Assembly (NCBI GenBank): GCA_023954155.1
Contig: JAMLIO010000008.1
Location: 5,229-69,228, forward strand
Reading direction: 5' to 3'
From: Pseudobdellovibrionaceae bacterium
GTDB lineage: Bacteria; Bdellovibrionota; Bdellovibrionia; Bdellovibrionales; UBA1609
Length of the DNA: 64,000 bases
Position 1 is the first letter of the stretch. Each line of letters starts with the position of its first letter. This document shows positions 4,545-63,008 of this stretch, one piece after another. A program made the translations under genes and the position numbers. A model generated the notes under the pieces. The model was not told the DNA's origin. It saw only the letters and a program-made list of their open reading frames with translations, and did not search any database.

Positions 4545-5510
4545 GTGAACTTCTTTATTAGAGTTGTTGTTTTAGTTGTTGTCCTGCTGTCTGGCGTGTT
4601 CGCGTCTGCGGCTCCACTTGTGTTAGGGAAACGTTACCCTTTAAATACAAAAGCTGAGCGCGGCACGCTGGTTTGGCAGTTTGTAACTTTTAACCGCTCT
4701 ATTTCTGGTGGGATCAACATTCAGCTTGAAGTTTACAATTCTAGAGCCAAAAGTCTAAAGTACTTTGACGAGTATCGCGAGATTGTAGATAGCTCTATTC
4801 AAAAAAATACGGTATCAAAATTTGCTCTTGAAAACTCAAGTGTGAATTTCAGCAGTGACCGCTACGCCCTTTTAACCTTTCAAGTCAGTAAGCTTTCAAA
4901 TCTTTATTATATCCCATTAAGGGTCGATTATTATGATGGCTTTGAAGACTATTTGGTAAGATTGTATTTTGCTAAAGGTAAGTTTTCAATGGCCTCTAGG
5001 TTATTGCAACAAGGTAAGTTTGTAAACGCTGATGAGACAGCAGAGTCTCAAGAAGATAACAAGAAGAGCAAAAAGAAATCTAAAAAAGATAAAAAGAAAA
5101 AGTCAGAGGAACAAGAACCGTCTGATCAAGGCATGACATTTTCTCCACAAGAAGCCCCTGCAGAATCTGTAGACACTGGTGCTGCTGCTGATAGCACTTC
5201 ACCAAGTGAGCCGTCTGTAGATGAGGAACACACTATTTTAGTGGAACCTATAGAGCTTACTCCTGAAGAGCAAAAAGAGCAGGATAGAGTCAATGAAGAG
5301 CTAAGATCTTTTATCGAAACAGCTCCTGACGAGACACTTTTACAAGAACTCCCAGAATTTAAGTCAGACCTTTCAGATCCTAACTTTAAAGATGCCTCTG
5401 ACATTTTATTTGGCGAGAAACCTGATGCACCCAAATCAGATGAGGCAAGTTCAGACGCCAACTCGGAGACCACTCCTAGCCAAGATGAGACAGAGGAAGT
5501 AGCTCCTTAA
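4545..5510 (+). CDS. secreted hypothetical protein with a Lys-rich then acidic Ser/Glu/Pro low-complexity C-terminal half
   Basis: GTG start. Signal peptide VVVLVVVLLSGVFASAAP. KKSKKKSKKDKKKKSEEQE block followed by an acidic PEST-like tail. The antisense ORF 5126-5473 is a low-complexity artefact. Confidence 0.5.
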   Translation: MNFFIRVVVLVVVLLSGVFASAAPLVLGKRYPLNTKAERGTLVWQFVTFNRSISGGINIQLEVYNSRAKSLKYFDEYREIVDSSIQKNTVSKFALENSSVNFSSDRYALLTFQVSKLSNLYYIPLRVDYYDGFEDYLVRLYFAKGKFSMASRLLQQGKFVNADETAESQEDNKKSKKKSKKDKKKKSEEQEPSDQGMTFSPQEAPAESVDTGAAADSTSPSEPSVDEEHTILVEPIELTPEEQKEQDRVNEELRSFIETAPDETLLQELPEFKSDLSDPNFKDASDILFGEKPDAPKSDEASSDANSETTPSQDETEEVAP

Positions 5511-8403: not shown

Positions 8404-8492
8404 TGGTGCCCGAGGCCAGACTTGAACTGGCACGTCCGGTGAGGGACCCAGGATTTTAAGTCCTGTGCGTCTACCAATTTCGCCACTCGGGC
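8404..8492 (-). tRNA. tRNA-Leu, anticodon UAA, long variable arm, encoded CCA
   Basis: The reverse complement reads GCCCGAGTGGCGAAATTGGTAGACGCACAGGACTTAAAATCCTGGGTCCCTCACCGGACGTGCCAGTTCAAGTCTGGCCTCGGGCACCA. Acceptor stem is GCCCGAG/CTCGGGC. T-arm is GCCAG-TTCAAGT-CTGGC. The anticodon loop CT-TAA-AA gives anticodon TAA. Confidence 0.95.
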
Positions 8493-15528: not shown

Positions 15529-15544
15529 AATGTGTTCTCCTTAT

Positions 15545-15622
15545 GGGACGAGATACGTAATTGATATTACATATCTGATTATAGGGCGAGATTTGTAATT
15601 GATATTATATATCTGAATTCAA
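15545..15622. promoter_or_regulatory. two tandem ~39-bp direct repeats, each containing an 11-4-11 palindrome, in the leader/promoter of the ltaE-like/kynA operon
   Basis: Copy 1 is GGGACGAGATACGTAATTGATATTACATATCTGATTATA and copy 2 is GGGCGAGATTTGTAATTGATATTATATATCTGAATTCA. The palindrome in copy 1 is AGATACGTAAT-TGAT-ATTACATATCT. Confidence 0.5.
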
Positions 15623-15630
15623 TGAAATAG

Positions 15631-16599
15631 CTATGTTGAAGATTGGGCTGCGTGATGAAGGTATCTGTAAGCAATCTGTGCGGCCAGTTTGGCGGTGCGA
15701 TGATCCTGATCTAGTGGGGGTGAGACTTCATAAATTCCCAAAACCTGCACGTCAAAATGATCCAGTAAAAAGCAAAACATCTGCAAGAACCCAAGGGGCT
15801 CAAGGCCTGTAGCAAAGGATTGACTGCACCCCATGGCATAGGCGTTAGAAAAAGCATCAATGTCGACACTCACATAACAGGGGCGATGGGGATTGGTCTC
15901 TGATTCTAATATTTTTTTAAATCGCGTGAAGTTTAAAAAAGACTGAGGATAACGCTCACTGCTCGTATAGAGATCAGAAAATGAAATCACTTGTCCTCCT
16001 TGGGACTTAAGCCACTGCAAATGCTCTTTGGAGTTGCAGTGCTCTTGGATGCCGATCTCGTAAAAATCAAAACCTCCGTGCTCTAACAGTCGATAAAAGG
16101 GGGTGCCACTTGTAATGCCATTGCTCATGGGTCTAACATCTAAGTGGGCATCAAAGTTAAAAATAAGAGGACGCAGACTAGATCCTGCATTTCTTTTTAA
16201 GAAATATTTTCCATCCACATAGCCGTAGTCATGTCCTCCGCCAAAGCTGATCAGTTTTTGTTTACTGCCAAGATTTTTCTCTAAAGCAGCCACAGCGACC
16301 TCGTGTCGAGAGGCGAGATCGGGCTGAGTGCTGAGATTTCCCAAGTCGGAAATCAAAGGCAAGTCGGTGTCTTCACCTCTAAAAGCAGGAGGGGTCATCT
16401 TAAATAAGAACTCACGAATGGCATTGGGAGCAAGGCGGGCTCCTGGGCGACCCGAATTATTTTTGATCCCTTCGTCATCAGGATAACCTACAAGCACAAA
16501 ATCACTGCTGGCGATGTTGGGAGATAAATAAGAAACAACACGTAAATCAGATTTGGTGGTTTGCAGGTGGAGGTCTTCGGGGTGAACGGGCTCAAACAT
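15631..16599 (-). CDS. arginase/agmatinase/formimidoylglutamase-family ureohydrolase
   Basis: Mn-binding blocks are present: GGGHDYGY, FDAHLDVR, SVDIDAFS. The size and N-terminal region look most like HutG-type enzymes, but substrate is not assignable. Confidence 0.7.
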   Translation of the reverse strand: MFEPVHPEDLHLQTTKSDLRVVSYLSPNIASSDFVLVGYPDDEGIKNNSGRPGARLAPNAIREFLFKMTPPAFRGEDTDLPLISDLGNLSTQPDLASRHEVAVAALEKNLGSKQKLISFGGGHDYGYVDGKYFLKRNAGSSLRPLIFNFDAHLDVRPMSNGITSGTPFYRLLEHGGFDFYEIGIQEHCNSKEHLQWLKSQGGQVISFSDLYTSSERYPQSFLNFTRFKKILESETNPHRPCYVSVDIDAFSNAYAMGCSQSFATGLEPLGFLQMFCFLLDHFDVQVLGIYEVSPPLDQDHRTAKLAAQIAYRYLHHAAQSST

Positions 16600-16605
16600 A
16601 CTTTA

Positions 16606-16643
16606 TTCCTTTATGATCTCTCTTAGGATCAGTCATAAAGGAA
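16606..16643 (-). promoter_or_regulatory. 11-bp perfect hairpin whose 3' arm (mRNA sense) contains the Shine-Dalgarno of the ureohydrolase gene
   Basis: On the minus strand the sequence reads TTCCTTTATGA-(16-nt loop)-TCATAAAGGAA-TAAAGT-ATG. The AAGGAA SD lies inside the stem. Confidence 0.4.
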
Positions 16644-16681
16644 TATTAGCAGGGTCAATGTGAAGATAAAAGGGGCTCTGC

Positions 16682-17359
16682 TTACTTGATGCCCAGTAGA
16701 AGTCCCCAATGGTAATTGGAAAACTGACCTTGTTGGTTTTGTGGTGGAGAGACGGTGCGGTACTTTTCTGTTGTTAAAGCTAAAGGGATTTTAACCTGAG
16801 TGTTTAAGAGTTCACCCGTGGCATTGGTCTCTTGAATGGTTAAGGCCAAATGGTCTACAGTTTCCATCTTATCCTGAGCGCGCGGTTTAGCGTGCACCAG
16901 AGACACCCCAAGTAACGTGCCTTTCACTACAGAGGAACTTTGAATTTCTGCCCCACGCCCTTCCCAAAATACAAACTGTACTGTTTGCCCCTGACGGGTT
17001 GAAGGGAATGAAAGGCTTTTTAAATATCCTATAAGGCTTGGGGTGTTAATGCTGTAAAAAGAGCCTTCAAGCTTTAGAGCTTCAAAAATTGGATCTAAAC
17101 TTTTCTCCCCATTCTGGTTCCATTTCGCGCGCGTTGATTCTGTACTTTTGAGAGGAATGGTATTGGTGGAAAGAGGCGTATCTATCTTATTGTTCCGAGA
17201 GATATAAAACCTCACACTGGGGTCTAAAAAGTCAGTAGTAGAACTTGGGTTAGGGACTGTAATCTCTTTTAAATACCCTAAACAAGCGGCATTAGCCCAA
17301 GACAGCGTAGGGGTGATAAGTGTCAATAAGATACACATGGAAAACACACTTTTTGTCAT
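16682..17359 (-). CDS. secreted hypothetical protein (225 aa)
   Basis: Signal peptide MTKSVFSMCILLTLITPTLSWA. The mature N-terminus NAACLGYL resembles that of the 7744-8268 protein. Confidence 0.5.
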   Translation of the reverse strand: MTKSVFSMCILLTLITPTLSWANAACLGYLKEITVPNPSSTTDFLDPSVRFYISRNNKIDTPLSTNTIPLKSTESTRAKWNQNGEKSLDPIFEALKLEGSFYSINTPSLIGYLKSLSFPSTRQGQTVQFVFWEGRGAEIQSSSVVKGTLLGVSLVHAKPRAQDKMETVDHLALTIQETNATGELLNTQVKIPLALTTEKYRTVSPPQNQQGQFSNYHWGLLLGIK

Positions 17360-17452
17360 CTTTACCTCAGTAATTTCAATAAGTTAGAACTTATACCCTT
17401 TTCCTTACCAATAATCCAGCAATAAAAGTGCCATTCTATTGGGGGGGCTTGG

Positions 17453-17597
17453 GTTCGGGTTGGATTTGGAGATTATTTTATGTGCACTCAAAATGCTCAG
17501 ACAGTGACGTTTGGCATGCTTTTGCGTTCGCAAAAGAATGCCAAGCCGAACTCGCATTTTGACCACACATAAAATAATCTCCAAATCCAACCCGAAC
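17453..17597. repeat. rod-like hairpin element, copy 1 (conserved core reads on the minus strand)
   Basis: 17453-17484 is the exact reverse complement of 17566-17597 (32 bp). The interior 81 nt folds further and is 92% identical over 75 nt to the core of the 33651-33791 element. Confidence 0.85.
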
Positions 17598-17694
17598 GCC
17601 AGGCCGAGTGAGGGACTTTATCTGGGCTTACAGATGCTTGGGGTATGTGGTGAGGATTGGTTTTATGAGAAACAGACATGAGTGCCGTCTATTC

Positions 17695-18807
17695 TTACTG
17701 AGAGTTATCTTTTTTTAGTTCAGAGATAATAGTGGCTTTGAAAGGGTTTAATTTTTCTCCTAGGTCTAAAGTTTCTAGGGTGGGGATCAGTTCTGTGGCT
17801 TTTAAGTTAAGGGCCATGATAAGCGCATTGCGTTTTAGGCCGAAGCCTCGAGGGCGAGTCAGTGGGGTGCTTGCAAACTGTTTTTCTAGGCTTTTATGAG
17901 AGGAGTTTAAAATTTCAAGAATAGTTTTTAAACTGTGCGCTCGACTCCACTGTGCTGAGGGAGGCGAGGTGGGTTGATGTTTGTATTCAAAGACTTTTTG
18001 ATTCCAGGGGCAAACATCTTGGCAGATGTCACAACCAAAAAACCAAGTACCAAATTTTTTAGCCAGTGCAAGCGGTGGGGTGGTTTTGGCTTCAATGGTC
18101 CAATAGGAAATGCACTTGCTGGCATCAAGTTTAGTTTTAGTGGGGGAGTCAGAATCTACACTTAGAGCTTCAGTGGGACAGGCTTCAATGCACTTGGTGC
18201 ACTTTCCACAACGATCAGGGTGAACAGTGATGTCAGGCAAGGCGGAACTTAAGGGCAGACTGGTGATGATTTCGCCAATTAAAAAAAAGCTGCCTTTGTG
18301 AGAGTGAATGACACAGGTGTTTTTACCAAACCAACCAAGGCCCGCCTGGTAAGCAAAATCTCTTTCCATAATGGGTTGAGAGTCCGTGGCAGGCAAAAAA
18401 TGGTGATGCGGGAAGGTTGATTTTAATTTCTCACAGGCCTGTTGCAGTTTATGTTTAAACCAATAATGGTAGTCTATCCCTTGAGCGTACTTGGCGATAT
18501 GAAACGCTTGGTTCACATCATTAAGACTTTCATGGGGTTCAGGGTGATGAAAGTAAGACTCGGTGACAACAATGGTGCTCTGGGCATCAGGCAGAATGTG
18601 TTTAAGGTCTTTTTTGGTTTCAAGATGATCTCGGAGGTAGTGCATCTGTGCGTTTAGACCTTCATCGAGCCAATTTTGGTAAAAGGACATCGAAACAGGG
18701 GTGGTCAGAGGCAGGGCGCTCACCTGATCAAAAGAAAATTCAGTAAGTAAACTCTGGATTTGTTCTCTCACCAGATGACACTTATAATGAGAAGCATGGA
18801 CGGTCAA
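17695..18807 (-). CDS. queG: epoxyqueuosine reductase
   Basis: Two ferredoxin-type clusters are present (CGKCTKCIEACP and CDICQDVCPWN), with QueG-like N-terminal and HEAT-like C-terminal regions. The ORF-track start is TTG, so the exact start is uncertain. Confidence 0.8.
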   Translation of the reverse strand: MTVHASHYKCHLVREQIQSLLTEFSFDQVSALPLTTPVSMSFYQNWLDEGLNAQMHYLRDHLETKKDLKHILPDAQSTIVVTESYFHHPEPHESLNDVNQAFHIAKYAQGIDYHYWFKHKLQQACEKLKSTFPHHHFLPATDSQPIMERDFAYQAGLGWFGKNTCVIHSHKGSFFLIGEIITSLPLSSALPDITVHPDRCGKCTKCIEACPTEALSVDSDSPTKTKLDASKCISYWTIEAKTTPPLALAKKFGTWFFGCDICQDVCPWNQKVFEYKHQPTSPPSAQWSRAHSLKTILEILNSSHKSLEKQFASTPLTRPRGFGLKRNALIMALNLKATELIPTLETLDLGEKLNPFKATIISELKKDNSQ

Positions 18808-33411: not shown

Positions 33412-33650
33412 AAAAAAGCCACCCTTCTTAATATATTACACGACGAAGCTAAGAGTTTGTAAAGACTAGAATAAAAAGAAACCCCAAAACAACAAAAGAA
33501 ATCAACAGATCGTTTTTAATTCAAAAATATTTAAAGATAACGAAAACACACAATATCAAGCGTTTGATAATTAAAAGCTTAACATTAAAAATTTAAAATT
33601 TCACTAAGACAAAGAAAACAACTTCACTCACTTTACCCGATTAACTGAGA

Positions 33651-33791
33651 CTTTGGGTCTTGGGGTGGGGATTTTCTATATATGGTCGAAATGCGAGTTC
33701 GGCTTGGCGTGATTTTGCGAACGCAAAATCATGACAAACGTCACTGTCTGAGCATTTTATATATAGAAAATCCCCACCCCAAGACCCAAAG
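33651..33791. repeat. rod-like hairpin element, copy 2 (conserved core reads on the plus strand)
   Basis: 33651-33683 is the exact reverse complement of 33759-33791 (33 bp). The 75-nt core 33684-33758 matches the reverse complement of the 17485-17565 core at 69 of 75 positions. Confidence 0.85.
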
Positions 33792-33794
33792 GGG

Positions 33795-34829
33795 CTACAT
33801 TTTGATTCCCATTTTACCTGAGTAAATTAAATTCATATTATAGATACAAAGCATAGAAACAAGTTCAAGACTGGTCGTCTTTTCAGTTTTAATCAGAAAG
33901 GCTTTGTTCTCTTTGCAAAATTCAAGGATCTCGTCATACATCTGCCCAAGGGTGTAGGCGTCTTGCCCCGTCCACTTGGACAGAGTTTCAAGAATATGTG
34001 GCCGCTCTTTTTTTAAAAACACAGCAGCAGATTTGTTTTTCTTATAAGCTGTGGACGAAGAAAATAAATGAAACACAATAGGGGTCAGATCCATTTTTTC
34101 TTCAGAAGATAAATAAGACATTTGGTCATGATAAAAGGTCTTTAGTTTTTTTGTGCTTTTGACAATGTTTCCTGGACGTTTTCTGACAAACACCTTGGGG
34201 CTTTTGCCTTTAATGCCCTTCATGGTTTGATCCACGAACTTTAATTTTTCTAAAGCCAGAGGCCAATTTTTATATTTGCTCTTCCATTTAGACGAGGGGC
34301 TTAGCCAAGTGGCAAAGGTCTCGGCCCAATCCTCATCGGGATGAGCTTGGGCGTACCAAGGGTTAATGTGGCTAACAAAATTTTTATAGTTCAATCTTGG
34401 GTAATAGGATTCAGGGTATGGCGCCGAGGACAAACCAAAAAGTTTTTGTCGTTTGCGTGACATTCTTAAATGGAAGGCGTTGTCTATGGCATGTCCCGCT
34501 TCATGGCGCAAAACCCGCATACAGTCTTTGGGGTCAGCACCTTCGGGTGGAGCACCCATGATCGCCGCATGCAGGGCGATCAATCGAGGATGAACCAGAT
34601 AAAAGGGCACGGCAATGCCAGGCACTCCATCAGTGGCGTACCACTCGCTAGCAATCCAAAAGTGAGGTTTAAATCTTAAATCTTTTTCAGAAAGTTCTTT
34701 ATAAAGAGCCTTAATAAAAGGAGTCAGACGCGAGTGACGAAGAGACAAGTTCAGATCGCAAAAGCGTAACTCTAAAAGCTCTTTATCAGTAAGAGAGGTC
34801 CACCAGTCCGTCTTTTGTCTTTTTGCCAT
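33795..34829 (-). CDS. cytoplasmic HExxH putative zinc metallopeptidase-like protein
   Basis: VLRHEAGHAIDNAF (HExxH), followed downstream by HPDEDWAETFATW. No signal peptide. Confidence 0.55.
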   Translation of the reverse strand: MAKRQKTDWWTSLTDKELLELRFCDLNLSLRHSRLTPFIKALYKELSEKDLRFKPHFWIASEWYATDGVPGIAVPFYLVHPRLIALHAAIMGAPPEGADPKDCMRVLRHEAGHAIDNAFHLRMSRKRQKLFGLSSAPYPESYYPRLNYKNFVSHINPWYAQAHPDEDWAETFATWLSPSSKWKSKYKNWPLALEKLKFVDQTMKGIKGKSPKVFVRKRPGNIVKSTKKLKTFYHDQMSYLSSEEKMDLTPIVFHLFSSSTAYKKNKSAAVFLKKERPHILETLSKWTGQDAYTLGQMYDEILEFCKENKAFLIKTEKTTSLELVSMLCIYNMNLIYSGKMGIKM

Positions 34830-50669: not shown

Positions 50670-53600
50670 TCAAGAAAGAGTTTGCATGGAAGACACAAGA
50701 TACGTGCTAGCAGCAGAGTGAGAGGTGAGGTTCACATCAGGAGCTTGAGTGTCTAAGACATAAGACACTTCAAGGTCTAAACAGTCAGATTGAAAACTTC
50801 CTGAAGACACCTGTGCATAATAGCTGTGTAAGCCATCATCTGATCCATCATTATTATAGCTTGTACCCAAAACAATTTCACCACTTGGAGGCACAGTCTG
50901 TGTGGCTATGGCCGTACCAGTACACATGGCATCTTCAAAAAGTGAAAGTGTGAGACCTTCGGCCTCGGGTAAAGTTCCTGTCAAAGAAGGAGTTGTGTCG
51001 GCACTCACTGGAGGATCAGAAGGAATATTAGGATTTCCTGGGTCCAAATTCATGGTAAAGACCGCATCGAAATTCAACAACACATACGTCATTTGTAAAG
51101 AAGGGTAGAGTGTGCCGTCAGAAATCTTTTGTTGTCGGGCTCTAAGAGTCGGAGAAGCAACGGGATTAAAGACCACCTCTGCCTCAAAAGTTCCCCCATA
51201 ATCACTGCCATCACTGATACAAGGCGTGAACACTGAATTGTTGATTTCACCAAAAATTTCAACTGTTGAAATGTCAGGATGGTAAGCACAAGTTCCAGAA
51301 ATGGTGGTTTCCATTAAATGAGTCACAGTGCTTCCGCCGCTAGGAGATGTGATGGCTACGCTTACTGAAGTCGGAGGAGGAAGGGTGATATTGACCGTGA
51401 TGCTATCTAGAGCGGTGTTTCCCGCAGCATCGGTTTGACCAAAACTAAGAGTTGTACTTCCTAAAGTCGAGGGGAATGTAAGGACTCTGTTATAGGTCCC
51501 TGATGCGCAAGTGGCTGTATGGCTTACACCACCCACATTCAGATCCACCTGAGCTCCATTTTCACACGCTCCTTGCAGAGTTTGGCTGGAGTTGGCGTAA
51601 TAAGAATTCCCTTCCGTATGAGAAGTCAAAGTCACTGTAGGCGCTATAGTGTCTAAAGTGTAAGAGAGTCCTGTATCAAAACATCCCGAGGGATTTGTTT
51701 GTCCATTTTGTGCTGCCACTTGCGCGTAGTAATGATGAAGACCATCGTCAGTGCCATCATTATCATAAGTTAAACTTAAGTTGATCACTCCTGTGGAGGA
51801 CACAGAGGACGTCTGCACCATGACCGCGCACATCGTATCTTCAAAAATCTGAATGGTGCCGTTGTTTGCTCTTTCTACTGTACCCGAAATGACAGGGGCG
51901 GTGTCTTTAGAAACAGCTCCTGCGGGAGTGACAGTCAAAGTCAGTGTAGGATCAGTCGGTGCTACGTAGTACTGTCTGCTGGCCGAGTTGCTTTCAGCAT
52001 CAAAATTATTTGTTTGAGTGGCTGTGAGCGTAGGTGAAGAGACAGAGTTAAAAGTCACATACGTGGAATACATCCCCCCATAAGCACTTCCATCACTATT
52101 ACAAGGTGCATTCACGGTTGCTGTAATATCTCCAGTCAGCACCACAGGACTCATGTCTGAATGATAAGTACACACTCCACTAACAGCAGTAGGCACAGTA
52201 GGATCTACGGTGCTATGTTGTGCAGGAGCACTAATGGTGATTGTAATAGAAGAGGCAGGGGCTAGAGTTAAAGAGTAAGTGTGATTGATCTGTGTGGTGT
52301 TGTTCGCGGCATCGGCTTGAACTAAAGTGAGGTTGATCGAACTTCCTGCACTAGGAAAAAGAACATTTTGTGTAAACGCACCAGAAGCACACGTAGGTGT
52401 GAAGGACTGTCCTCCCACTGTAAGCTGAATAGGGGCGTCAGATTCACAACTTCCAGTAAAAGTTTGTAAAGACTCAAGGTAGTAGGTTTCTCCATGAGTA
52501 TGAGAGGTCAGAGTAAGAGCAGGAGCTGTGGTGTCCAGTTTATAACTTCCCACAGCCGTACAGCCACCCGCATTGGGTGTGCCATGAGAGTTGTGTAGAA
52601 TAGCATAAAAATGTTTATCGCCGTCATCTGAGCCATCATTTTGATAATTAAGACTTGTGATATTCACATTCCCATTAGAAGGAACACTGTAGCTTTGCAC
52701 TAACTGCGAACAACTGGGATCAGAATAAATAAAAAGAGTTCCTAAGGTGGCTAGAGACACTGTGCCCGTGATTGTAGGTGTAGTGTCGCGTGATGAAGGG
52801 GGAGTTGTGGTGTAAGTGGGGTGTCCTGCATCGTGATTTAAAGTTAAAGTCGTGGGATTAGCAGGGGCCACCTGATAGCTCACTGTGCTGGTGTAAGTTG
52901 TGTTGGTATCAGTTTTAATTTGTGTGGCAGTCAATGTGGGATTAGCTACAGTCGAAAATTGCAAGGAGGTGCTAAACGTTCCCCCATAAGCACTTCCGTC
53001 ACTGATACAGTTCGTGGTTGTTGTGCCCACAACGCTTCCAGTAAAGGTGATGGTGCTATTCATCACAGGGTGAGACGTACACGTTCCTGACACTGTGACA
53101 GGATTAGAAACGTCAATCACGCTCCCTGAGGCGGGAGAAGTGATAGCGATTTCAGGATTTGTGGGAGGCCCTAGAGTGAGTGTGAAGGTCACAGACTCAC
53201 TGGTGTTTAAATTAGCTAGGTCCGTTTGGGCAAAGGTCGCAGTGGTGGCGCCTGTAGATCCTGGTAAATTGAGCGAAGTGGAAAAGGCACTTGAACTGCA
53301 TGGGGCCTGATGAGTGCTGCCATCTAAAGTGATGTCGACAGGAGTTCCATTCTCACAAGTTCCCGAAAACAGAAGACTGCTTCCTGCGTAATAAGACTGC
53401 CCATTTTGAGGTGAGGCCACAGTAATAACAGGAGGTGTGGTGTCCAATCTGTACGATAATAAAGTGCTATAGCATCCCCCTGGATTTTGCACTCCGTTGA
53501 CGCCTGTTACTCGAGCATAAAATCTTTTAAGCCCATCAGCACTTCCATCGTTGGCAAAACTGATGTTGGTGATATTGAGATTTCCTCCCGAAGGAATGGT

Positions 53601-54377
53601 TTGTGAACCTATGACAGGAGTGGCACATAATGAATCGGCAAAGATCTCAATGCTTCCGCCGTCAGCATCTGCAACGGTACCTGTAAGAACAGGAGTGTTG
53701 TCGGCACTGACACGAGGGTCAGAAGGGAAATTGGGATTTCCTGCAGAAATATTTAATGTCAAAGTTGGATGTCCAGGGACTGTGTTGTCAAAATCATAAG
53801 TGGCGCTATCTGTTCCTGTGTTACCTGCAAGATCAGTTTGCGAGGCGATAAGTTCTCTTTGTCCCACAGTGGGCAATAAATTAAATTGGACTGTGGCAGT
53901 GAACTGTCCAGACTCAAGACAAGGGATGTTGATGCCGCTTTGTAAGTCCCCAGTCAGAGCCACCAGAAGACCTGCTTCACAAGTTCCAGACACACTCACT
54001 TGCACACCGACAAAACCACCATTAGCAGGATGAGTGATGCTCACTGCAGGAGGAGTGGTATCAAAAATGATTTGGGCTGTAGCACTGTACGTGTCTTGTG
54101 TGGCTTCTAGATCGGTTTGAGCTTGATCTACGGTGATATCAGCTTCGTATTGACCGTCTGTACACGTCAGTGTCAGAGGGGAACCCGTAAAATTGCCAGT
54201 GACTGTCACTGTTAAGTCGTCAAGTTTATCCTGACAGACCCCCGAAATATGAACCGCAGCCACATTGGTGTGTGAGGGAGCGACAAGAGTAAATCGTTCA
54301 GCGCTGTTATTACTAGTAAAGCCACCGCAACCAGTGACAAAGGATAAAAGTATTACTCCCCAGAGCAAACGGACCAT
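50670..54377 (-). CDS. N-terminal portion of the giant repetitive Ig-like surface lipoprotein
   Basis: Lipobox in MVRLLWGVILLSFVTGC. About 300-aa super-repeats are delimited by LDTT(P/A)P linkers at aa 106, 312, 615 and further on. Ends at TGA 50670-50672 in the middle of a repeat. Confidence 0.75.
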   Translation of the reverse strand: MVRLLWGVILLSFVTGCGGFTSNNSAERFTLVAPSHTNVAAVHISGVCQDKLDDLTVTVTGNFTGSPLTLTCTDGQYEADITVDQAQTDLEATQDTYSATAQIIFDTTPPAVSITHPANGGFVGVQVSVSGTCEAGLLVALTGDLQSGINIPCLESGQFTATVQFNLLPTVGQRELIASQTDLAGNTGTDSATYDFDNTVPGHPTLTLNISAGNPNFPSDPRVSADNTPVLTGTVADADGGSIEIFADSLCATPVIGSQTIPSGGNLNITNISFANDGSADGLKRFYARVTGVNGVQNPGGCYSTLLSYRLDTTPPVITVASPQNGQSYYAGSSLLFSGTCENGTPVDITLDGSTHQAPCSSSAFSTSLNLPGSTGATTATFAQTDLANLNTSESVTFTLTLGPPTNPEIAITSPASGSVIDVSNPVTVSGTCTSHPVMNSTITFTGSVVGTTTTNCISDGSAYGGTFSTSLQFSTVANPTLTATQIKTDTNTTYTSTVSYQVAPANPTTLTLNHDAGHPTYTTTPPSSRDTTPTITGTVSLATLGTLFIYSDPSCSQLVQSYSVPSNGNVNITSLNYQNDGSDDGDKHFYAILHNSHGTPNAGGCTAVGSYKLDTTAPALTLTSHTHGETYYLESLQTFTGSCESDAPIQLTVGGQSFTPTCASGAFTQNVLFPSAGSSINLTLVQADAANNTTQINHTYSLTLAPASSITITISAPAQHSTVDPTVPTAVSGVCTYHSDMSPVVLTGDITATVNAPCNSDGSAYGGMYSTYVTFNSVSSPTLTATQTNNFDAESNSASRQYYVAPTDPTLTLTVTPAGAVSKDTAPVISGTVERANNGTIQIFEDTMCAVMVQTSSVSSTGVINLSLTYDNDGTDDGLHHYYAQVAAQNGQTNPSGCFDTGLSYTLDTIAPTVTLTSHTEGNSYYANSSQTLQGACENGAQVDLNVGGVSHTATCASGTYNRVLTFPSTLGSTTLSFGQTDAAGNTALDSITVNITLPPPTSVSVAITSPSGGSTVTHLMETTISGTCAYHPDISTVEIFGEINNSVFTPCISDGSDYGGTFEAEVVFNPVASPTLRARQQKISDGTLYPSLQMTYVLLNFDAVFTMNLDPGNPNIPSDPPVSADTTPSLTGTLPEAEGLTLSLFEDAMCTGTAIATQTVPPSGEIVLGTSYNNDGSDDGLHSYYAQVSSGSFQSDCLDLEVSYVLDTQAPDVNLTSHSAASTYLVSSMQTLS

Positions 54378-62084: not shown

Positions 62085-63008
62085 ATGAATATGAGTCCAT
62101 GTCCTGTTGTCGTCGTCGGCGATATTATTTTAGATGAATATTGGTATGGGGTTTCAGAGCGTATTTCTCCAGAAGCTCCTGTGCCTGTTGTTCTTAAAAA
62201 ACAGTCCACGAGCCGTTTAGGTGGAGCCGCTAACGTCGCTTTAAATATCAAGACTCTAGAAGTTCCCGTGCATCTAGTAGGAGTTCTAGGCCAAGACGAA
62301 GCGGGGGCGAAAGTGAACGCTTTACTCCAAGAGCACGAGATTGGGACAAGTTTGGTGCAAGAACCAGGTTTAACCACGATTCAAAAGCTTAGAATTTTAG
62401 CCAACAATCATTACATTGGGCGAGTAGATTTTGAAGAGCCCTTTACGCCCGAGCCTCAAGAGCTTTGGGCTCGTATTCCTGAGTCTGTGGAGTATTGTGT
62501 TCTTAGCGATTATGGCAAAGGGACTTTGACCAGCAGCAAACATAAAAGCGTGGTGTCTTTACCCGAAGGCCTCATTCAAAACTTAAATGCTAAAGGCTGC
62601 AAAGTGCTTGTGGACCCCAAAGCCAGCTTTGATAACTACCAAGGGGCATGGCTGATCAAGCCCAATAAAAAAGAATTTGAAACCTATGTGGGTGAATTTT
62701 ACTCCCGTGAAGACCTGATTCAAAAAGCACAAGAGGCTCTTAAAACCCATGGCATTAGTAATATGCTTGTGACTCTGGGTTCTGAGGGGATGATGCTGAT
62801 CAGCGAAAACCAGCACCAGCACTGGCCTTCAGAGGCTTTGGATGTCTTTGATGTGACAGGAGCTGGGGACACGGTCATCGCCACATTAGCAAGCTTTATG
62901 GCAAAAGGGTCTTCACTGGTGGAAGCGGTGGTCCAAGCAGGTAAAGCCGCTGCCATAGCTGTAGGCAAGAAGGGTGTATATAACGTGAAATTACAGGAGC
63001 TTAGCTAA
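62085..63008 (+). CDS. hldA: D-glycero-beta-D-manno-heptose-7-phosphate kinase (RfaE domain I, PfkB family)
   Basis: VVVVGDIILDEYWYG...ISPEAPVPV N-terminus and the PfkB signature DVTGAGDTVIATL. The ATG immediately follows the fadJ TAA. Confidence 0.75.
   Translation: MNMSPCPVVVVGDIILDEYWYGVSERISPEAPVPVVLKKQSTSRLGGAANVALNIKTLEVPVHLVGVLGQDEAGAKVNALLQEHEIGTSLVQEPGLTTIQKLRILANNHYIGRVDFEEPFTPEPQELWARIPESVEYCVLSDYGKGTLTSSKHKSVVSLPEGLIQNLNAKGCKVLVDPKASFDNYQGAWLIKPNKKEFETYVGEFYSREDLIQKAQEALKTHGISNMLVTLGSEGMMLISENQHQHWPSEALDVFDVTGAGDTVIATLASFMAKGSSLVEAVVQAGKAAAIAVGKKGVYNVKLQELS

Follow-up and report, generated by a model that had tools for sequence, protein, structure and literature searches.

What kind of element is a 145-nucleotide (nt) hairpin that sits between two genes, closes on a perfect duplex longer than 30 base pairs (bp), and recurs at a second locus with a nearly identical centre and very different ends? 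The question is raised by a 64,000-nt stretch of contig JAMLIO010000008.1 (141,488 nt in all; positions 5,229 to 69,228 of the forward strand; assembly GCA_023954155.1, Pseudobdellovibrionaceae bacterium, Bdellovibrionota), which is called the window throughout, with positions counted from its first letter. The original prediction, made from the letters of the window, put forward two possibilities, a structured RNA and a DNA foldback element recognised by a protein. The answer preferred here, to which about even confidence is attached, is that the hairpin is a non-coding palindromic (foldback) insertion of an undescribed family, carried by some strains of one species-level clade of Bdellovibrionota; between the two natures first proposed, it is most likely a small foldback-type selfish element and not an RNA gene. 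[quoted passage not shown] In the well-described families the ends are the conserved, enzyme-recognised parts, and the pattern in the present element is the opposite.

The first copy (copy 1) occupies positions 17453-17597. Its 5' arm (17453-17484, 32 nt, 81% G+T, GTTCGGGTTGGATTTGGAGATTATTTTATGTG) is exactly reverse-complementary to its C/A-rich 3' arm (17566-17597, 32 nt), and the arm sequence is the same in an independent assembly, scaffold L052. The arms enclose an 81-nt interior (17485-17565, plus strand) that prolongs the fold, first through a closing helix of 9 bp (17488-17496, TCAAAATGC, with 17554-17562, GCATTTTGA), then through an asymmetric internal loop with 14 nt on one side (17497-17510, TCAGACAGTGACGT) and 9 nt on the other (17545-17553, GCCGAACTC), and finally into an inner hairpin (17511-17544) of 16 bp with one mismatch and a 2-nt terminal loop, which contains the palindrome TTTTGCG-NN-CGCAAAA. 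The outer helix and all parts of the interior are thus as originally described. Outside the arms, 17445-17452 pairs imperfectly with 17598-17605 (5 of 8 pairs), and counted in this way, with the inner closing helix included, the pairing reaches 17445-17605 as 52-nt arms that are 88% complementary. The sequences flanking the copy begin GCCAGG... and CCAAGCC.... Folded as RNA, the two strands give -101.3 and -100.6 kcal/mol (z = -13.8 and -15.5); folded as DNA, they give -56.3 and -59.5 kcal/mol (z about -15). None of 200 shuffled sequences folded as stably, and with z scores of about -14 to -16 as RNA or DNA, the same rod is formed by either strand. The copy is intergenic, as first reported, with the stop codon of queG (17695-17697) on one side and a 225-amino acid gene starting at 17359 on the other; the identity of QueG is supported by homologues and Pfam domains, and its homologues put the organism among the Bdellovibrionota.

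A second copy (copy 2) lies at 33651-33791 and is inverted relative to copy 1, which it matches over 85 nt (17490-17574) at 89% identity; the two copies are the only long close-range inverted repeats in the window. The arms of copy 2 (33651-33683 and 33759-33791, 33 nt each) are 100% complementary, the first being G/T-rich when read 5' to 3' on the plus strand and the second ending 3 nt from the stop codon of a Peptidase_Mx gene (33795-34829, minus strand). Between them is an inverted 75-nt core (33684-33758). The cores of the two copies are identical at 69 of 75 positions (92%) and score 110.8 bits (copy 1) and 109.3 bits (copy 2) with a covariance model of the core. Of the six differences, five are in the stem of the inner hairpin, one of these being compensatory and replacing C-G by A-T; the closing helix, the central palindrome, and both loops (TCAGACAGTGACGT and GCCGAACTC) are invariant. 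The arms are far more diverged: in an anchored arm alignment, MAFFT having gapped the two arms asymmetrically, they agree at 21 of 32 positions with 3 gap columns (about 64% alike; p about 0.045 with composition-preserving shuffles). Sequences outside the arms are unrelated between the copies. Conservation therefore declines from the loops, closing helix, and central palindrome through the inner stem to the arms, and since the loops and core are the most conserved parts, the core is likely to be constrained and presumably recognised.

If the arms are so little conserved, it is fair to ask whether they belong to the element at all. Their composition is shared, with G+T of 81% and 79% and base counts of T15 G11 A5 C1 and T15 G11 A4 C3; by a binomial estimate a random 32-mer reaches 26/32 G+T with a probability of about 3e-4 per arm. 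Inverted duplication of native target DNA would be another source of such arms, and appears plausible by eye at the empty sites of relatives, but 189 of 1000 and 434 of 1000 shuffles score equally. The shared composition, the marginal arm alignment, and the lack of significant likeness to native sequence at the empty sites together indicate that the arms are part of the element. An apparent agreement between the copies in how the G/T-rich arm is placed with respect to the core was withdrawn, because a perfect palindrome shows the same 5' arm on both strands; only the shared 5' G/T-rich composition is meaningful.

Between the two copies the arms differ by 10 substitutions and 3 indel columns, every one of which is mirrored on the partner arm, and among the 65 arm base pairs of both copies there are no mismatches and no G·T pairs. 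Perfect Watson-Crick arms free of wobble pairs, despite many transitions, argue against selection on an RNA fold and for copying at the DNA level. This points to arms that drift in concert, their complementarity kept by DNA-level copying of one arm from the other. Template switching during replication has been shown to create, extend, and repair perfect stems, and to introduce multi-base compensatory changes in one event (PMC8794818); two further papers describe template switching as homogenising, extending, and perfecting inverted-repeat arms without G·U intermediates (PMC13100816, PMC8604942). The arms of the present element resemble such template-switch hairpins in being perfect, free of G·T, and fast-changing. 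However, template switching is a mutational process and not an element, and it explains neither the presence of the same 76-nt core at two unlinked loci nor the shared 80% G+T of the arms.

The same observations bear on the proposal that each copy is an independently transcribed gene for a structured small RNA (sRNA), the two being paralogues with a rod shape like that of 6S or Y RNA, or of antitoxin type. The extremely stable fold and conserved internal-loop architecture would suit such a gene, as would the compensatory pair in the inner stem and the folding of copy 2, in which a G·U pair makes one strand more stable by about 5 kcal/mol. The arms, however, contain no G·U at all, and a perfect duplex of 32-33 bp is atypical of stable bacterial sRNAs, and RNase III would degrade it. 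No Rfam family fits: at gathering scores the one match in the whole window was a tRNA, and both copies, when scanned permissively, gave only matches of miRNA or snoRNA type far below gathering scores. Promoter and terminator scans of both copies gave nothing above shuffle expectation, and the copies share neither a promoter nor a terminator nor anything else outside the hairpin. The TGGCA-N-TTGC of the inner hairpin is similar to a sigma-54 site, with spacing one base short of the consensus; this reading was dropped. Further points against an RNA gene are the absence from close relatives, considered below, and the contrary orientations of the two copies with respect to their flanking genes and to replication. 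A dedicated RNA gene is therefore not supported by the sequence comparisons and appears highly improbable, and on this evidence the hairpin should not be annotated as an sRNA gene. The decision not to assign it to 6S agrees with the lack of an Rfam match for either copy, and the dismissal of a plain terminator is borne out by the absence of a U-tract beside copy 1 on either strand; no intrinsic terminator (a short GC-rich hairpin followed by a U-tract) was found on either strand of either copy. Nor does the element appear to be a coding gene. The open reading frames that cross copy 1, which looked spurious in the original prediction, are indeed so, and the same frames hold stop codons in copy 2; no conserved frame was seen, and a chimera of all open frames of the core had no match among 5.8 billion predicted proteins. 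Of the two natures originally offered, foldback DNA gains from the repeated, insertion-like palindrome, and structured RNA loses from the lack of an Rfam family, a shared promoter, and any G·U pair in the arms.

Is the hairpin an ancestral feature of these loci or an addition to them? In the sister lineage (contigs L004-L006, L009, and L010), whose QueG is 94% and Peptidase_Mx 98% identical to those of the window, about 27 nt follow queG at the first locus, compared with about 264 nt in the window, and at the second locus the region between Peptidase_Mx and an ATP-grasp gene is 134 nt, compared with 383 nt. More distant relatives (66-75% identity) also have short intergenic regions of 78-109 nt. 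As both the sister lineage and the distant relatives are short at these loci, the long state is derived. In about 124 kb of sister-lineage DNA, neither a copy recognisable by the covariance model nor any comparable inverted repeat was found. The first locus is occupied in three strains: the window, the strain of scaffold L052, and strain ERR13725800.

Scaffold L052, from metagenome ERZ28614527, has flanks identical to those of the window and carries the element at its positions 1094-1200 in a reduced form. The 60 nt corresponding to 17460-17519 are replaced by a single T, so that only CCCGAAC is left of that arm, and the other arm and half of the core are kept; the fold is predicted to weaken from -89 to -24 kcal/mol. 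A form with the hairpin deleted in an otherwise identical strain implies that the element is dispensable and unstable. Taken together, these comparisons describe a strain-variable, lineage-specific, and dispensable inserted repeat. The original prediction had itself named a dispensable repeat without conservation in sister genomes as an outcome that would refute it, and it is this that was found; it tells here against the RNA reading.

Strain ERR13725800 is about 10% diverged from the window genome-wide, and its element is split between two contigs. One (L048, 3' end at 4867) stops soon after queG, about 39 nt before the arm, and the other (L053, 5' end at position 1) begins inside the inner hairpin and continues across the C/A-rich arm to reach the flank. 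Against the window, the 3' part of the core in L053 is identical at 29 of 29 positions, the C/A-rich arm has 6 differences in 33 columns, the flank is 97% identical, and the 225-amino acid gene is 99.3% identical; the outer junction is rearranged on the side of 17441-17452 (CCAAGCCCCCCC on the minus strand). The arms of the window stay perfect. At equal rates the probability that the other lineage acquired all six changes is about 0.016; the alternative is that changes in the window lineage were copied onto the partner arm.

These two incomplete records also bear on the explanation that the hairpin arose artificially in sequencing or assembly, for instance as a palindromic chimera or from a hairpin adapter that was not removed. 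A constant core within locus-specific perfect inverted repeats is indeed what a missed hairpin adapter would look like. However, L052 (one arm and half of the core) and L053 (the other half of the core and a diverged arm) reproduce the element at the same locus and, as independent assemblies from other samples, confirm parts of it; the inverted repeats end after 32-33 bp rather than at read length, and the cores differ at 6 positions. The chance of an artefact is accordingly vanishingly small.

Other features of the locus were noted in these strains. Both ERR13725800 contigs stop near the element. Short-read assemblies seem to be interrupted or to lose coverage there, and the element flags a place at which those of this organism break or collapse. 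ERR13725800 diverges from the window in a mosaic fashion: the 225-amino acid gene and its upstream flank are 97-99% identical, and queG to one side and an arginase-family gene to the other are about 89-90% identical (regions compared: window 15631-17452 with L053, and window 17695-17997 with L048). Such a mosaic points to a recent tract of recombination with its end at or beside the hairpin. The C-terminus of QueG varies by strain (…ELKKDNSQ, …ELKNP, and …ELKKD; window 17695-17720 compared with L004 2580-2598 and L048 4775-4800), reflecting small indels before the stop codon that adjoin the inserted block.

How would an insertion of this kind keep its stem perfect as its ends diverge? For the foldback insertion preferred here, the core would be the recognised part, whether by a mobilising agent or by a host factor, and the arms would be needed only as a stem and constrained only to pair. 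The stem would be kept perfect at the DNA level, one arm being copied from the other during replication or repair, by intrastrand template switching or by hairpin-templated correction. In a co-transcribed mRNA, the 32-33-bp stem of double-stranded RNA would be a likely substrate of RNase III or a 3'-end structure, a by-product of the element and not the reason for its existence. If the pattern holds in more copies, the element would be a clean natural example of DNA-level hairpin maintenance, which is otherwise inferred mostly from phylogenetic reconstruction, and would point to a hairpin-recognising enzyme in Bdellovibrionota.

The order of conservation could also be read as the mark of a specific transposition mechanism. 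The element would then be, as folded single-stranded DNA (ssDNA), the substrate of an HUH/Y1 transposase, as for REP/RAYT or IS200/IS605-like elements, or of a tyrosine recombinase, as for attC; the loops would be read, one arm and the core transferred, and the other arm regenerated by self-primed fold-back synthesis. Arms regenerated at each event would be perfect by construction and free to drift. The invariant loops and closing helix, the varying inner stem, and the most variable arms fit this proposal, as do the strictly Watson-Crick arms without G·T and the very stable folding of both strands as ssDNA. The retention of one arm and half of the core in L052 loosely recalls the asymmetric excision products of REPINs (PMC3116915). 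Against it, neither a conserved cleavage motif nor a tetranucleotide was identified, and no HUH transposase, RAYT, or recombinase gene was identified in the window or the relatives compared, no protein-family scan of the window having been run. The orientation of the copies is also unhelpful: their cores point opposite ways, and as GC skew is positive across the whole window, the copies are also oppositely oriented relative to replication within one replichore, unlike what a strict lagging-strand ssDNA mechanism would give, although n=2. Among bacterial transposons, self-templated regeneration of an arm is not known to have a precedent. We consider this mechanism unlikely. A broader version would make the element a new class of structure-specified mobile DNA, in which the module of internal loop and hairpin is recognised instead of the termini, the stem is rebuilt from one arm in each cycle by fold-back synthesis or obligatory template switching, and the arms, perfect by construction, can diverge at several times the rate of the core. 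In that case the form with 60 nt deleted in L052 could be an intermediate of excision or processing instead of a random deletion. The broader version appears rather unlikely.

Comparison with described families places the foldback insertion near several of them and inside none. The terminal inverted repeats of MITEs are conserved, recognised by a transposase, and flanked by a short target duplication, which is TA for Correia elements. Correia elements (CREE/NEMIS) of Neisseria and other MITEs resemble the present element in their length of about 100-155 bp, inverted repeats around a conserved core, intergenic position in either orientation, and strain-variable presence; insertion polymorphism between related genomes, with an empty sister lineage and outgroups and a first locus filled in three strains, is as in MITEs. 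The terminal inverted repeats here are present and perfect (32 and 33 bp), but they are not conserved between copies as MITE ends should be: the arms are the least conserved part. No significant target duplication was found beside them. Correia elements are often co-transcribed. One study reports that their long mRNA hairpins can be bound or cleaved by RNase III (PMC2649163). REPINs, doublets of REP sequences mobilised by RAYT (TnpA-REP), are likewise non-autonomous palindromic units, each folding as ssDNA or mRNA into a single long hairpin; compensatory changes are common on the two sides of this hairpin, and asymmetric excision products have been found in population reads (PMC3116915). REPINs, however, have conserved 16-mer REP ends and a variable spacer, whereas the present element has a conserved centre and variable ends, and REPINs number tens to hundreds of copies beside a single RAYT gene, in contrast to 2 copies in about 74 kb with no RAYT seen and no GTAG-type REP head.

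Three further families were compared. ERIC sequences (also IRU) are imperfect intergenic palindromes of about 127 bp that occur in transcribed regions in either orientation and vary between strains; their copies are alike over the full length and have no long, perfect, copy-specific outer stem, and they have no sequence similarity to the element. The attC sites of integrons, imperfect palindromes too (about 57-141 nt), are read as folded single strands, by structure and by unpaired or extrahelical bases and not by sequence. Recognition by folded structure would be a likeness, but the polarity is reversed: attC conserves the base of its stem (R''/R', RYYYAAC / GTTRRRY) and varies at the tip. 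In the present element the ends of the arms (GTTCGGG / CCCGAAC in copy 1 and CTTTGGG / CCCAAAG in copy 2) are off this consensus, and there is no integron context, integrase, or cassette array; each copy lies singly between housekeeping genes. Elements of IS200/IS605 type (PATE) have separate subterminal hairpins at the left and right ends rather than the one symmetric stem found here, and they insert with a strand bias relative to replication; the two copies lie opposite under a uniformly positive GC skew, although n=2. No match to a known insertion sequence (IS) or MITE family with target-site duplications, the other outcome that the original prediction had singled out, was found. The element thus appears to be of the palindromic-repeat kind, resembling MITEs, REPINs, and Correia elements in behaviour and being a member of no named family.

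No further copy turned up in any search. The covariance model of the core recovered the two known copies and no more in 245 kb of the window and its relatives, which includes the roughly 74 kb of the source genome that was scanned. Across 185k species-representative genomes there were no matches either to an exact two-motif pattern or to a 19-mer of the large loop. Metagenome contigs gave three matches, all chance matches inside a GC-rich coding gene, and viral contigs gave none to the two-motif pattern and only chance matches of 16-19 nt to each half. The two full insertions had no match, IS-like or otherwise, in blastn searches (distant mode) of plasmid and phage collections.

Could the element, whatever its origin, now serve its neighbours? 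It might be an exapted cis-acting hairpin, such as a stabiliser of the 3' untranslated region, an RNase III site, or a factor-dependent terminator, or else a DNA site for a dimeric regulator at TTTTGCG-AA-CGCAAAA. Each copy has a gene just upstream of it and another, co-directional one next downstream, all four flanking genes being on the minus strand, and copy 2 begins 3 nt past a stop codon. The core is invariant across strains over the 29 bases available in L053. Correia and ERIC-type repeats are reported to be bound or cleaved by RNase III and to change the expression of neighbouring genes (PMC2649163). However, the same genes do without the element in the sister lineage and outgroups, a hairpin-deleted variant exists in an otherwise identical strain, and no U-tract is present. 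The opposite orientation of the cores also means that the mRNAs of the two loci would carry different loop sequences. The central palindrome was considered as an operator used elsewhere, and in the window and the relatives' loci it occurs only inside the element. A present function of this kind is judged fairly improbable.

Several points weigh against a foldback insertion and are best considered together. To speak of a repeat family is to generalise from n=2 copies plus orthologues, and the arm homology between the two copies appears marginal (p about 0.045). The partner arm of ERR13725800 was not recovered, and compensation at the orthologous locus is not directly seen. The deletion in L052 could have arisen artificially, during library preparation or assembly, at so strong a hairpin. 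Near the copies no transposase, recombinase, or reverse transcriptase was seen, the window proteins not having been scanned against Pfam; gene order there agrees with that in the relatives, in which the called genes have housekeeping Pfam domains. Neither locus showed a significant target-site duplication, in comparisons for which the available strains were too distant to offer a clean empty site, and the second locus had no candidate. At the first locus an imperfect direct repeat, AGTGCCATTCTATT / AGTGCCGTCTATT (17427-17440 and 17681-17693), brackets the hairpin together with its queG-side neighbour and is also present in ERR13725800, but it is only 13-14 nt with 2 differences, does not abut the hairpin, and is equalled by 511 of 3000 shuffles. 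Finally, about 100 nt of unrelated extra sequence beside each hairpin is left unexplained.

This extra sequence comprises RH1 (17598-17694), between the hairpin and the queG stop codon, and RH2 (about 33545-33650), beside copy 2. RH1 is lineage-specific and is absent along with the hairpin in L004-L006; RH2 is AT-rich and absent from the sister lineage in alignment with L009, and its boundaries are approximate. Membership of either in the element is uncertain. The two lie on the same side of the asymmetric core at both loci, and the total insertion is similar at both (about 240-250 nt). The first 60 nt or so of RH1 next to queG are present in L048 at roughly 80-85% identity before that contig ends, so the queG-proximal part, which ERR13725800 shares, was either co-inserted or is native to the subclade. 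Other origins were tried and rejected: RH1 and RH2 have no similarity to each other, no source for either was found in nearby DNA, and a reading of RH1 as a decayed extra arm is not significant, 539 of 2000 shuffles being as good. A 9-mer in RH2, CTTGATATT (33552-33560, minus strand), resembles the nick-site core of rolling-circle origins of the phiX174 and pC194 type; in such AT-rich DNA the resemblance is probably chance, and RH1 has no equivalent.

A few other features of the window are unrelated to the element. The tRNA that was the sole Rfam match at gathering score is at 8407-8492 on the minus strand (59.3 bits). Two tandem 38-nt units, 82% identical, lie at 15536-15611, where the arginase-family gene and a beta-eliminating-lyase-like gene are separated by intergenic DNA. 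A 43-nt segment occurs three times, at intervals of about 880-906 nt (51186-53016); its copies are inside a reading frame of 1235 amino acids (50670-54377, minus strand) and probably reflect internal repeats of about 300 amino acids in a large protein. The 307-amino acid PfkB-family kinase of the window (62085-63008) is identical on contigs L049-L051 from several metagenome assemblies, which implies that near-identical strains of this Bdellovibrionota organism recur across samples; the name of one of these records points to Hadza/Nepal human stool samples.

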